From: a virus
Virus genome (UHGV): UHGV-0061377
Direction: 5' to 3' (one strand)
DNA: 44,710 nucleotides
The notes below the pieces were generated by a model that saw only the letters and a program-made list of their open reading frames with translations, was not told the origin of the DNA and did not search any database. Numbering within the stretch: position 1 is the stretch's first letter; each line of letters begins with the position of its first letter. Of the stretch, positions 10,517 through 16,201 are shown one piece after another. Made by a program: the position numbers and the translations under genes.

Positions 10517-10765
10517 AGCTAAAGTATTAGCTTAAAAATAAAGTATACCTAGCGAATATAATCTAGGACTAGTTGTAACGCCCGAAATGATTGATTGCGT
10601 GAGCAACAAAATTTTTCTTCCATTGTTGTGAAATCATTTAGCCATAAAGTTTATGCAGAGATTTTATTTTATTTTTGAGTTGATTTTTTTGTAACGAGCT
10701 GTATATTTCGCGCCTCTTGTCATACCAGTTATTTTTTTCATTATATTCATAACGTTGATTGAACT

Positions 10766-13700
10766 ATGACCACTGTGAATAAAAAGTTAAAAAAAACTGC
10801 ATCTGGCGCGATTACATGGTCGGTAATTGTTACCCAGATATTATCTCCAGTTTCTCTTTCTTTGATCCCAGCAAACAGTTTTGCATCATCTGGTAATAAA
10901 GATGTTACGCAAACTTATGCCAGCGATGAGCATGCAAATAAAGTGGCCTCATTTGCAGCAAGTGCAGGTCAGAGCCTGGCGAATAATAATGCAAGTAGTT
11001 TTGCTGTAAATACTTTATCAACTCAGGCGACAAAAGAGGTCGTCGACTGGTTGCAACAATATGGCAATGCGCGCATCAAGCTTAATGTCGATGATTCTTT
11101 TTCCTTGAAGGATTCATCATTCGACTTTTTATATCCATGGCTGGATACTCAGGATTATGTGCTTTTCAGTCAGACATCACTACATCGTACTGATGACCGA
11201 AATCAGACCAATATTGGTTTGGGGATTCGTCATTTCACTCCTGATAACGCAATGTTGGGTGCGAATGTTTTCTATGATTACGATTTAAGTCGCAGTCACT
11301 CTCGTGCAGGTTTTGGGGTTGAGTACTGGAGAGATTATTTCAGGCTTGGTGTAAATACCTATTTTGGTTTGTCTGACTGGAAGAACAGTCGGGACATTGA
11401 TGATTATCTGGAAAGACCCGCAAATGGCTGGGATTTTTCTGCTGAAGGATGGCTACCTGCTTATCCGCAATTAGGGGCATCCATTCAGTTTGAAAAATAT
11501 TATGGTAAAAATGTCGGGTTATTTGGAAGCGATAATCTGCAGGAAAACCCTTACGCAGTTACTGGGGGAATTTCTTATACACCAGTTCCTCTGATTAAGT
11601 TTTCTGCACAGCATAAGCAAGGACAGAGCAACGTTCACGATACAACCTTTGGTGTTGAGTTTAATTATCGCCCGGGCGTTTCCCTTGCTGAACAGCTTAG
11701 CAGTGACAATGTTGCTGTTATGCGAGAAGTCCAGAACCGGCGTTATGATTTTGTTGAACGAAATAACAACATTGTTCTGGAGTACAAGAAGAAGCATGCA
11801 CTGAAAATCAGTTTGCCAGAGTCTGTTCAGGGGGAGGGGGAATCAATCATCCCTGTAACACTGACAATCAACAATGCTAGTGGTGGTATCAAGTCTGTAC
11901 AGTGGAATGATAGTGCATTCACTGCGGCTGGCGGCAAGATCAGTGGAAATGGCACATCATGGCAGATCACTTTACCGGCTTATAAAAGCGAAGGTGTAAA
12001 TTCGTGGAATGTTGGAGCCACAGTACAGGATAACAGAGGCAACGTTTCCAACTATGCCGTGATGAATATTAGCGTTACTGATAGTGGTGTCTCGACGGCT
12101 GATTCGTCTTTTACACTGGATGGAGATTCGTCGCCGACGATCTCTGCTGATAGCCAATCCACTTATCCAATAGTATTAAGCCTGAAAGATAGTAACGGTA
12201 AGGCATTAACCGGACTGGCTGATGACATTGAAATGTCAGTGGAATTTACAGCAGATAGCAATAGTGCTCGACAGCGTGAAACGGTAACTGCTCCGTCATT
12301 AGGCGCGGTAGAGGAAATCTCTGCTGGGGTATATCGCTCTGTTCTGACTGCTGGTTCGCAGGCTGGTACGGTACGTGTAACTGCAAAAGTTCAGGGAAAA
12401 ACCTTTACTCTGAATATTAAGCAGGCAGCCATTACTGATAGTGATGTATCGACAGCTGATTCGTCTTTTACACTGGATGGAGATTCGTCGCCGACGATCT
12501 CTGCTGATAGCCAATCCACTTATCCAATAGTATTAAGCCTGAAAGATAGTAACGGTAAGGCATTAACCGGACTGGCTGATGACATTGAAATGTCAGTGGA
12601 ATTTACAGCAGATAGCAATAGTGCTCGACAGCGTGAAACGGTAACTGCTCCGTCATTAGGCGCGGTAGAGGAAATCTCTGCTGGGGTATATCGCTCTGTT
12701 CTGACTGCTGGTTCGCAGGCTGGTACGGTACGTGTAACTGCAAAAGTTCAGGGAAAAACATTTACTCTCAGTATTAAGCAAACAGCAGCAACAGAACCTG
12801 ATTCTGAGGTCAGTGCTGTTTTAACCGCTGCACCAGCAGAACAGGTAGTTGGTTACAATATCAATCTACAACTGGCAGTGAAGGATTCACAAGGAAATGC
12901 AATCACTGGTGATAACACTCTGAGCTTTTATGCTCTTAACCAGGCAGAAGGAGTCGAGTTTGGGACTGTAACGGAAAAAGACGGTGTCTATAGCGCGACA
13001 GTAACTTCAAAACGAGCTGGTAAGATTACTATCGGTGTTAAATCTGATAGTCATGATTTCTCAGGTGTTAAGAAAGAAATCACCTTTATTGAGGACCGGC
13101 AGCAGGTTACATTCTCTCAGTTTGAAGCCAGCCAAAATAATGCATTGGCTGATGGAAAACAGAGAAATATGGTAACTGTAAGCCTTGCGGACCGTTTCGG
13201 CAATGTTGTTCCTGGTTATGCTGTCACATTGTCTTTACCAGCAGGGATAACTCAAGTTGGTGGTGAACATGCTGTTTCAACTGACGAAAATGGTAATGCT
13301 ATTTTTGCGTTAATAAGCTCCACTCCGGGGTCTTACGTGATTACAGCTCATGCTGGTTCTCAGATGTCTACTGAGTTAACAGTGACCTTTGCATCAAATA
13401 TGACCGGAGCTTCACTGTCACTGACGCCTGAAAGCAGTAGTTTAATTTCCAATATTCCTGCTAATGGTAAGGATGCAGCGGTATTAGATGTGCAGCTGAC
13501 AAATACGAATGCGTCGGTCAATGGGCAAAAGATTCAGCTCATCACCTCATCTGAAGGATTATCTGTACCAACAAATATCGTGACTGATTCAACAGGGCAT
13601 GTTTCTGTTCCGCTTACAACGGTGAAAGCTGGTGAGTACACGGTGACTGCACGGGTGACTGACGGTTCCCATAGCGTGGAATCTGGCAGCGTTAAGTTAA

Positions 13701-14712: not shown

Positions 14713-15754
14713 ACAGGTTAGCGTTTGGGTTTTGTTGTTGGGGAGCTGTTTTTATAGGCGCTCCCAGGTTTTTAGTAAACCACTCAACGACTCTGTTTAT
14801 AATAATTGGCTGATACCATGTCTTATCGCCATGCTCGGCCCCTTCTACCAGCACGTACTCAGCGTTATCGCCGTTCTTCTTCAACATCCTGAATAGTTTG
14901 GCGCTTTGCTCAGGTGAAACCAGAGTGTCTTTGCTACCATGCATAATAAGAAATGGGGGTTTTACTCCTTTCATATGTCCGATTGGACTGGCGTTTAGCG
15001 CTTTTTCTTTTGACGCTGTGATGGGGGCTCCCGCAAAATTTCTGAATGCAGGGCCATTGATCATTAAGGCTTCGGTTACGGCAGGAGAGCGATGAACCTC
15101 CTGCACTGATTCAGGGAACCCCTCGCCAATATTCAACAAGTCAGAAATCCCATAAAGTGTGGCAACTGCCTGAACATCTGAGGATTGCTGAAGAAAGTCA
15201 CCTTTATCAAAGGTTTTGTCACCATTTGTAGTTCCCATCATCTGGGCAAGCCATCCACCGGCAGAGTCACCCAGAACTCCGATTCTTTGAGGATCAATCC
15301 CATAATTGCTGGCATGCTCTCTCAGGTAACGTATTGCAGCTTTTCCATCCTCAACTGGTGCTGGAAATGTATCAGGAATTGTTCTGTATTCTACAGCGGC
15401 CACAACAAAACCAGCTTCTGCCAGAGCCATTCTCATTTCAATAAATTTGTCATGTTCAGAAGACATGAATCCGCCGCCGGGATAATAAATAATGGCTGGT
15501 TTTAAATCATTTGTTCGCGGGACAAGAACTGACATGTGAAGCTGTCTGACAGAACGAGTTCCTTTTATCTGGGAATAAACAACATCACCAATGAGATCGA
15601 CCTGGTTTCTGGTCGGTGAAACACTAATGATATCTGCACCCGGGGTGTAACCAGGAAGATTAGTCTGGACAGGTGTTACACAACTCCCGACCGACATGGC
15701 CATTGACATACCATACAATAGTGTTGCAGATGATAATATCTTGTTAATTTTCAT
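14711..15754 (-). CDS. Secreted or lipoprotein alpha/beta-hydrolase (esterase/lipase, HSL-like)
   Basis: 347 aa. N-terminal signal with a Cys (SVGSC), oxyanion-hole-like YYPGGGF, nucleophile elbow GDSAGG, and a C-terminal HG motif. Confidence 0.75.
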   Translation of the reverse strand: MKINKILSSATLLYGMSMAMSVGSCVTPVQTNLPGYTPGADIISVSPTRNQVDLIGDVVYSQIKGTRSVRQLHMSVLVPRTNDLKPAIIYYPGGGFMSSEHDKFIEMRMALAEAGFVVAAVEYRTIPDTFPAPVEDGKAAIRYLREHASNYGIDPQRIGVLGDSAGGWLAQMMGTTNGDKTFDKGDFLQQSSDVQAVATLYGISDLLNIGEGFPESVQEVHRSPAVTEALMINGPAFRNFAGAPITASKEKALNASPIGHMKGVKPPFLIMHGSKDTLVSPEQSAKLFRMLKKNGDNAEYVLVEGAEHGDKTWYQPIIINRVVEWFTKNLGAPIKTAPQQQNPNANL

Positions 15755-16201
15755 GTTTTACATGCCTTGACTTATCGGATGAAATTCTCTTACTGAATTT
15801 AACGGCAGTTTAATAGCCGTACAACTCGTGGTAGCCAGGGAAATATCCCAGTCGTGGTTAAGGTTGTACTTGACGGCTATTATTTCAACAATGCTTAAAG
15901 TGAGAGCTTAAGGTTATGCGTATGTTTTACAGTCCGAGTAGATTCTGACCAATAGCTTCTTTGTATAATTCTGTCAGAAATAAATCTTGGCTTGCATGAA
16001 GTTTGAGACCTTATCTTGTTTGATTATGAATAATCAATTCGCCATAATTGTATCACCGGAGCCTGAACAACTCCGGTGACTTCTGCGCTAAACGGGGACG
16101 TTTATGCGCACACACAATCCAAACTCTCTTCTCCCTTCACAGATGCAGAAATGCACCTGCGTTTTTTTGCATCCAGCGTCTGACCTCTGTGGAGGTGAAG
16201 C

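Follow-up and report, generated by a model that had tools for sequence, protein, structure and literature searches.

The 44,710-nucleotide virus genome UHGV-0061377, the whole of which is referred to here as the window, holds a prophage that is 99.9% identical to the lambda/DLP12-like prophage located beside icd in Escherichia coli strain A36. Between its replication gene P and the gene ybcN lies an interval, also present in the sequence type (ST) 131 strains EC958 and JJ1887, that contains two convergent genes, one encoding an inverse autotransporter (IAT, type Ve) adhesin and the other a serine esterase (Table 1). An earlier note on this DNA had described the interval as a single insertion of ~5.6 kb carrying cargo genes of the lysogen. 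Comparison of the interval across related prophages, which revealed four different arrangements, bears out its identification as accessory cargo in the slot between P and the nin genes, in that related prophages exist without it and some have ren together with other genes. The same comparison replaces the single insertion with two modules, each of which is found without the other in other genomes.

Table 1. Features of the P-to-ybcN interval of the window and of its two anchors.
Feature	Position	Strand	Basis or remark
Replication gene P, left anchor	9815..10516	+	PF06992, 208 bits
AT-rich upstream region of the adhesin module	10507..10765	+	GC ~0.35
Inverse autotransporter (type Ve) adhesin, 1302 aa	10766..14674	+	
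IAT beta-barrel translocator region, aa 57-334	10934..11767	+	PF11924; PDB barrels
Tandem duplication, 357 bp x 2.0 copies, 98% matches	12075..12780	+	Two 119-aa Invasin_D3-like Ig modules
Predicted intrinsic terminator of the adhesin gene: GC-rich hairpin (14686-14706) and T-tract	14686..14712	+	
BD-FAE / Abhydrolase_3 serine esterase, 347 aa	14711..15754	-	
Upstream non-coding DNA of the esterase module	15755..16018	-	Weak promoter-like matches only
Nin-region leader, conserved and common to DLP12-type prophages, not cargo	16019..16205	+	
ylcH homologue, 33 codons	16104-16205	+	K-12 ylcH
ybcN, NinB/Orf-type, right anchor	16202..16657	+	phrog_72, E=2e-51; RefSeq name ybcN

The larger of the two products, previously taken for a member of the intimin/invasin family with Ig-like repeats, passes the Pfam thresholds for IAT_beta, Big_1, and Invasin_D3. 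Its barrel region matches IAT_beta with 338 bits against a cut-off of 22.3 and, when compared with the sequences of solved structures in the PDB, retrieves the barrels of invasin (4e1t, E=1e-73) and intimin (4e1s, E=8e-63). Ahead of the barrel, residues 1-40 consist of a Lys-rich N-region and a hydrophobic core and end in S-F-A before Ser41; judged by eye, they are predicted to constitute a signal peptide cut after SFA. Beyond the barrel, residues 335 to 1302 make up roughly nine Ig-like modules, and a per-segment Pfam scan of this passenger places Big_1 in five stretches and Invasin_D3 in seven. The Pfam scan found no LysM match in the adhesin, nor was a lectin-like tip detectable by the per-segment family scan or by sequence search of the PDB.

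Within the stalk, the 119-residue unit that is duplicated in the window varies between one and four copies across E. coli adhesin alleles: one-copy alleles span 3552 bp, EC958 carries three copies in a protein of 1421 residues, and a form of 1540 residues is also on record. Proteins identical to the 1302-residue form are recorded from hundreds of E. coli contigs. When the window adhesin is compared with an allele of 94% identity, the barrel region (residues 101-300) proves 99% identical, whereas two blocks of 100 residues in the stalk are 86-87% identical. Changes between alleles thus gather in the exposed stalk, a pattern suggestive of a protein under selection.

Several lines of comparison argue that this adhesin belongs to a lineage of its own. 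Among 1.84 billion cluster representatives it falls into its own 50% cluster, the other clusters among the best 150 listed reaching at most 46% overall, and those relatives that were looked up are unnamed IATs of Enterobacter, Citrobacter, Yersinia, Salmonella, and Serratia. In PHROGs, the protein corresponds to two families of unknown function, while a tblastn search of the deposited phage genomes in INPHARED returned just two weak, unrelated matches of ~30% identity. Each named type considered was rejected. Its scores against the NCBIfam models lie below the cut-offs for intimin (334 and 319 against 1400 and 2050), IatC (394 against 2400), SinH/IatB (318 against 999), YchO/IatA (272 against 508), Ilp (312 against 1125), and YrIlm (305 against 750), and far below that for Inv; the lack of a LysM match and of a lectin-like tip likewise speaks against intimin. 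Orthology with FdeC/EaeH was rejected as well, identity being 50% in the barrel region alone and the gene lying at a prophage locus rather than in the ykgR-rclC region. Judged from these comparisons, the adhesin represents a distinct, unnamed, and widespread IAT lineage of variable stalk length, which we present here as new.

The convergent gene, described earlier as encoding an alpha/beta-hydrolase with a GDSAGG motif, passes the Pfam thresholds for both BD-FAE (PF20434; 153.9 bits, cut-off 26.8) and Abhydrolase_3 (PF07859; 81.3 bits, cut-off 25). The residues Ser164 (within GDSAGG; codon 15263-15265), Asp276, and His308 show no variation across 46 homologues, and the PGGGF oxyanion motif is conserved. 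An alignment-based structural model, with a predicted local distance difference test (pLDDT) value of 78, adopts the alpha/beta hydrolase fold and gives a template modelling score of 0.81 to 6nkf, normalised to the target. This entry, the rumen enzyme Lip_vut4 (32% identity), is the closest solved relative and was deposited as a lipase; the other nearest folds are the gut-microbiota carbohydrate esterases 6xyc and 6tkx and the Bacteroides GH43-CE protein 6mly. In PHROGs, the esterase belongs to phrog_3341, an 'esterase' family that recurs in phages and prophages.

The gene neighbourhoods of its relatives add a further indication of function. The nearest ones outside E. coli, of 75-79% identity and located on metagenomic contigs, follow a gene for phenolic acid decarboxylase at a distance of 16-33 bp, with a divergent gene for a LysR regulator beside one of them. 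Homologues in Dickeya share 63-69% identity with the prophage protein, and one of these, at 66%, is named 'Ferulate esterase' by its source; the Dickeya enzymes FaeD and FaeT are listed as feruloyl esterases (bioRxiv 10.1101/568105; PMC9007343). DNA similarity between the prophage gene and its relatives (~75%) is confined to the coding region, and a tblastn search for a remnant of the decarboxylase upstream of the esterase found none (best E=0.62, elsewhere). On the strength of Pfam family, fold matches, and the gene neighbourhood of relatives, hydroxycinnamoyl or acetyl sugar esters are the likely substrate, not lipid, and the role in lipid metabolism that the earlier note had entertained is unlikely. 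A separate observation on the same family is that metagenome contig ERZ1034969 (515-7229) carries an 80%-identical homologue near genes for an autotransporter of the serine protease autotransporters of Enterobacteriaceae (SPATE) type (Peptidase_S6) and for a PerC-family regulator, a context that may represent a virulence island or plasmid.

As to where the esterase resides, the export signal noticed previously is present, but a plainly secreted protein is not what it suggests. The signal sequence was compared with the lipobox pattern [LVI][ASTVI][GAS]C, and the three closest relatives carry canonical lipoboxes (S-T-G-C or S-A-G-C), while more distant ones have plain signal peptides lacking the Cys. 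Because these closest relatives have canonical lipoboxes and the window protein reads VGSC25, the esterase is a probable lipoprotein anchored via Cys25.

The limits of the two modules can be placed to within a few bases. On the left flank, other E. coli prophages are homologous up to 10506, so that the left breakpoint falls at 10506/10507, ~10 bp inside the 3' end of P, and homology to the right flank resumes at 16019. In between, alignment to the window starts at 14707, immediately to the right of the hairpin, for prophages with only the esterase, while those with only the adhesin align up to 14713 and so keep the hairpin and T-tract. From these alignment limits, the adhesin module extends from 10507 to ~14710 and the esterase module from 14707 to 16018. 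Four arrangements of the slot were found: ren::IS3-emrE-ylcJ-ybcK-ybcL-ybcM in K-12 DLP12; ren-emrE-ylcJ-ybcK-esterase in FDAARGOS_1254 and SC418; the adhesin alone, as the 94% allele and in a different lambda-like backbone with N and cII, in an ST38 isolate and MMC-J-0078; and adhesin plus esterase in the window, A36, and EC958. The interval is therefore composed of two independently exchangeable modules that were separately acquired.

Two marks of a moron are present at this site, namely a base composition unlike that of the flanks and absence from the same position in otherwise homologous phages. Inside the interval, GC content is 0.35 at 10400-10999, directly after P, and 0.41-0.47 elsewhere, as against 0.53-0.56 in O and P and ~0.50-0.53 in the nin genes. 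The AT-rich flanks proposed earlier are thus evident on the left, whereas the DNA on the right is only mildly AT-rich (GC 0.40-0.43). Similarly, the description of positions 15755-16201 as flanking non-coding DNA holds up to 16018; from 16019, where right-flank homology begins, the sequence is instead a conserved nin-region leader that includes the ylcH homologue. Two hairpins of this leader on the + strand (16055-16081 and 16141-16170) each fold better than 200 of 200 shuffled sequences; the second lies inside the ylcH homologue, with seven consecutive T after it. Both may be tR2-like terminators upstream of ybcN. The product of ybcN itself scores 23.7 against Pfam NinB, just under the cut-off of 23.8.

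Signals for transcription accompany the adhesin gene on both sides. In the 36-bp gap between the two genes, the predicted terminator hairpin has a 9-bp stem with seven G-C pairs and folds with energies of -17.8 kcal/mol on the + strand and -16.7 kcal/mol on the - strand. The tail on the + strand reads CUUUUU, as befits the strong terminator that the earlier note had proposed for both directions; the tail on the - strand, CAUUCAAUUUUG, makes a poor terminator, so that the proposed bidirectionality is only half supported. This predicted terminator is part of the adhesin module and travels with the adhesin gene. Upstream of the gene are sigma-70-like sites, with TTGTCA at 10717 and either CATTAT (16-nt spacer, ending at 10744) or TATATT (19-nt spacer, ending at 10747), in a region whose count of promoter-like sites is no higher than that of shuffled sequence.

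A relative outside the phage world bears on the history of these signals. A search of one genome per species for relatives of the adhesin returned only a fragment at a contig end in E. albertii and a 357-bp contig filed as Moraxella. The former, in strain NBRC 107761 (6001-6711), is 80% identical over adhesin residues 1-237, where the contig end cuts it, and is chromosomal and non-phage, lying downstream of an operon of ATP-binding cassette (ABC) transporter and aldehyde-dehydrogenase genes that we take to resemble ydcSTUV-patD of E. coli. This site may represent the ancestral locus of the adhesin cassette. The last ~70 bp before the adhesin start, with TTGTC(A/G) and (C/G)ATTAT, are conserved upstream of the E. 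albertii homologue, and the conservation suggests that the cassette probably moved into phages together with its own predicted promoter. The second match, contig CAXORL010000232.1 (357 bp, filed as Moraxella osloensis), has 100% protein identity to a single adhesin repeat unit and most likely reflects E. coli DNA contaminating that assembly.

Both genes are common. In a sample of 5426 complete E. coli genomes, the adhesin gene was present in 561 and the esterase gene in 681, with an intact adhesin-esterase junction in 441 and either side of that junction in 734; some matches are of low coverage because repeat copy number varies and insertions of IS66-family insertion sequences (IS) occur. A literature search by RefSeq accession and keyword yielded no work on the function of either gene. 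The prophage adhesin is not named among the seven groups distinguished in a published survey of E. coli IATs, whose genome set included EC958 and JJ1886 (PMC6714894). At the level of keywords, the EC958 genome paper does not mention the adhesin or esterase genes, and FdeC and SinH are the only IATs mentioned in a preprint on ST131 wound isolates.

The observations made here concern the domain content, the limits of the modules and their occurrence apart from each other, their prevalence, and the conserved catalytic residues. In what we consider the likely explanation, they are best accommodated by a pair of independent morons, stacked where a lambda/DLP12-like prophage has its variable slot from P to ylcH-ybcN, one an adhesin cassette of type Ve and the other encoding a probable lipid-anchored BD-FAE esterase. 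The first would be a self-contained cassette of AT-rich upstream DNA with a sigma-70-like promoter, a type Ve gene, and an intrinsic terminator. By analogy with its family, the adhesin would be exported by Sec, its N-terminal 12-stranded barrel placed into the outer membrane by the beta-barrel assembly machinery (BAM), and its C-terminal stalk of about nine Ig-like modules threaded to the surface, where it could mediate adhesion or biofilm formation, with stalk length shifting by gain or loss of the identical 119-residue repeat. When expressed, other E. coli IATs promote biofilm (PMC6714894). Transcription of the gene in the lysogen might start at its own promoter or, after induction, arrive by read-through, which is possible because the gene is co-oriented with O and P; its terminator would then stand in the path of transcription to Q. 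The terminators of the lambda nin region likewise lie in the path to Q. The second module would supply a convergent serine esterase of the BD-FAE / CE10-like carbohydrate-esterase family, probably lipid-anchored via Cys25 and facing the periplasm or the cell surface, which most likely would de-esterify plant-derived sugars that bear hydroxycinnamoyl (feruloyl, chlorogenate-type) or acetyl groups.

Various details weigh against parts of this explanation. For the adhesin, the last module (residues 1190-1302) matches Big_1 only marginally (E=0.05) and finds no PDB match at E<=10, and a single-sequence model of the last two domains, with a pLDDT of 36, is unusable. For the esterase, the lipobox-like signal ends in VGS-C25, in which Gly at position -2 is non-canonical. 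The substrate is assigned from the family and from the neighbours of the gene in other genera, the LysR regulator and the decarboxylase of its relatives are absent beside the prophage gene, and some BD-FAE relatives are acetyl-xylan esterases or were deposited as lipases. No convincing sigma-70 match was found upstream of the esterase gene, the best being TGAAATAAT, an extended -10, at 15887-15879, and expression, as judged from the DNA, is the weakest link in the case for this gene. Finally, elements of the IS66 family (ISEc23, ISCro1) lie inside the 5.9-kb interval of several genomes, and those insertions that were mapped sit at the 3' end of the esterase gene. In other genomes, matches break near the esterase 3' end, at window positions ~14727-14735, which suggests that this end is recurrently disrupted; NZ_CM190143.1, NZ_CP173438.1, and NZ_CP124332.1 serve as examples of these insertions and breaks.

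Three other explanations were weighed, and none of them is favoured. The adjacency and convergence of the two genes in at least 441 complete genomes, in an arrangement that is nearly invariant at 99% identity, might suggest one co-acquired cassette whose products function together, for example with the esterase preparing a ligand for the adhesin. We regard this as very improbable, since each gene is found without the other in the same slot and the hairpin and the esterase stop codon have a breakpoint exactly between them; moreover, no IAT gene adjoins the esterase relatives outside E. coli on the contigs that were read, and the adhesin homologue of E. albertii sits in an unrelated chromosomal context. 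Common origin of the two genes as one block is accordingly largely refuted. A different explanation concerns the esterase by itself, which could act on the envelope of its own host by removing O-acetyl groups from O-antigen, capsule, or peptidoglycan, or by hydrolysing lipid, thereby altering phage receptors or immune recognition. Envelope change of this kind is a classic form of lysogenic conversion or superinfection exclusion, and the envelope-targeting signal, the recurrence of phrog_3341 in (pro)phages, the acetyl esterases of the family, and the deposition of the closest solved relative as a lipase are all compatible with it. It is nonetheless quite unlikely, in our estimation, given that the PADLOC defence-system models give no match, that its close relatives are encoded on the chromosomes of plant-associated enterobacteria, next to phenolic acid decarboxylase, and that the best Pfam family is BD-FAE and not an SGNH or O-antigen-modifying one.

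The remaining alternative is that the genes are silent hitch-hikers, either silenced AT-rich DNA kept along with the prophage or, in the case of the adhesin, a gene transcribed mainly in the rightward early operon after induction. The AT-rich DNA upstream of the adhesin, the weak esterase promoter, the IS insertions of some strains, and the orientation of the adhesin gene, for which read-through from the early promoter is expected, would all fit such silence, as would the finding that related E. coli IATs have been studied only after artificial induction, native IatB being undetectable under the conditions used (PMC6714894). Set against silence are the intact full-length open reading frames in hundreds of genomes and at least two prophage backbones, the concentration of allele differences in the exposed stalk rather than the barrel, and the conserved promoter-like site and terminator that belong to the adhesin itself, and we therefore judge it unlikely. 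Returning to the two stacked morons, a bolder extension would make the prophage esterase an envelope-anchored hydroxycinnamoyl esterase that underlies the strain-variable cinnamoyl esterase activity of E. coli isolates and, together with the adhesin, confers an advantage on dietary fibre or mucus in the gut upon carriers such as ST131; the activity in question was reported for the human colonic isolates Nu, MC, and WC-1 by Couteau et al. (2001), as cited in PMC9560768. As a specific proposal, this extension strikes us as quite improbable.

Elsewhere in the window, the prophage backbone displays features of its own. In the O gene (8721-9818, +), an in-frame fusion has joined the first ~52 codons of the upstream cII-like/YdaT gene to O, yielding an open reading frame of 365 residues in which the O-like match begins at residue 57; the fusion is due to a 447-bp deletion relative to strain A36, with an 11-bp overlap at the junction (8867-8877). 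A gene of phrog_3482, of unknown function (6483-7504, -), encodes 340 residues and is intact in A36, while here it is split into two open reading frames (7148-7504 and 6483-7109) and is apparently a pseudogene produced by a frameshift. Another accessory gene lies downstream of the lysis genes, namely iss/bor, for the serum-survival lipoprotein (~19872-20165, -), followed by a small gene annotated as 'TonB family protein' (~20646-20972, +). Rfam and tRNA scans of the window gave no match, and an N-type antiterminator was not recognisable in the prophage backbone.

Lambdoid prophages are well known to carry accessory genes in their P-nin slot, and generic RefSeq annotations and PHROGs clusters already exist for both genes. 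New here are the distinct adhesin lineage, the probable feruloyl-type lipoprotein esterase, and the recognition of independent modules with base-level breakpoints, by virtue of which the slot offers a clean natural example of modular cargo exchange at one lambdoid prophage site. These genes are present in approximately a tenth of complete E. coli genomes, among them that of EC958, a reference strain of pandemic ST131. The adhesin, with its stalk of variable length, is a candidate colonisation factor and potential antigen, and the esterase is a candidate for the conversion of dietary phenolic esters by E. coli in the gut. While current concepts are left unchanged, two uncharacterised and widespread genes merit a simple experiment.

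Comparison with known systems places both modules in a familiar setting. The K-12 prophage DLP12 carries the cargo emrE-ylcJ-ybcK-ybcL-ybcM in the same slot, from P/ren to ylcH-ybcN, with homology resuming at the very same base, 16019, which identifies the slot as a hotspot for accessory genes; the DLP12 genes are entirely unlike those of the window, in which ren is also replaced. The morons of lambda-type phages, such as bor/iss and lom, are likewise accessory genes inside a lambdoid genome; they are bracketed by signals of their own and encode envelope proteins that alter the surface of the lysogen. In contrast to the cargo described here, which occupies the early-right operon, they reside in the late region and belong to other protein families. 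Among esterases, FaeD and FaeT of Dickeya are said to have been described in 2011 by Hassan and Hugouvieux-Cotte-Pattat as CE10 enzymes induced by ferulate via an adjacent LysR regulator; the prophage esterase, a putative orthologue of one or the other, differs in its lipobox-like signal in place of a plain signal peptide, its prophage location, and the absence of an adjacent regulator or decarboxylase. The prophage-borne NanS-p sialate O-acetylesterases of enterohaemorrhagic E. coli provide a precedent for carbohydrate esterases on lambdoid prophages that possibly aid the use of gut substrates, though they represent a different enzyme family at a different position in the phage genome. With respect to the adhesin, intimin (Eae) and Yersinia invasin share its barrel family and its Big_1 and Invasin_D3 stalk modules. 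A close named relative is FdeC/EaeH, which has the same type Ve architecture and a similar size: identity is 50% over adhesin residues 15-342, to a representative whose first 292 residues are the K-12 eaeH remnant, and an adhesin stalk module matches the FdeC crystal fragment 4e9l (E=3e-17). Whereas FdeC is encoded at a fixed chromosomal locus, the adhesin gene is borne by a prophage, and its stalk, unlike that of FdeC, contains near-identical tandem repeats of variable number.

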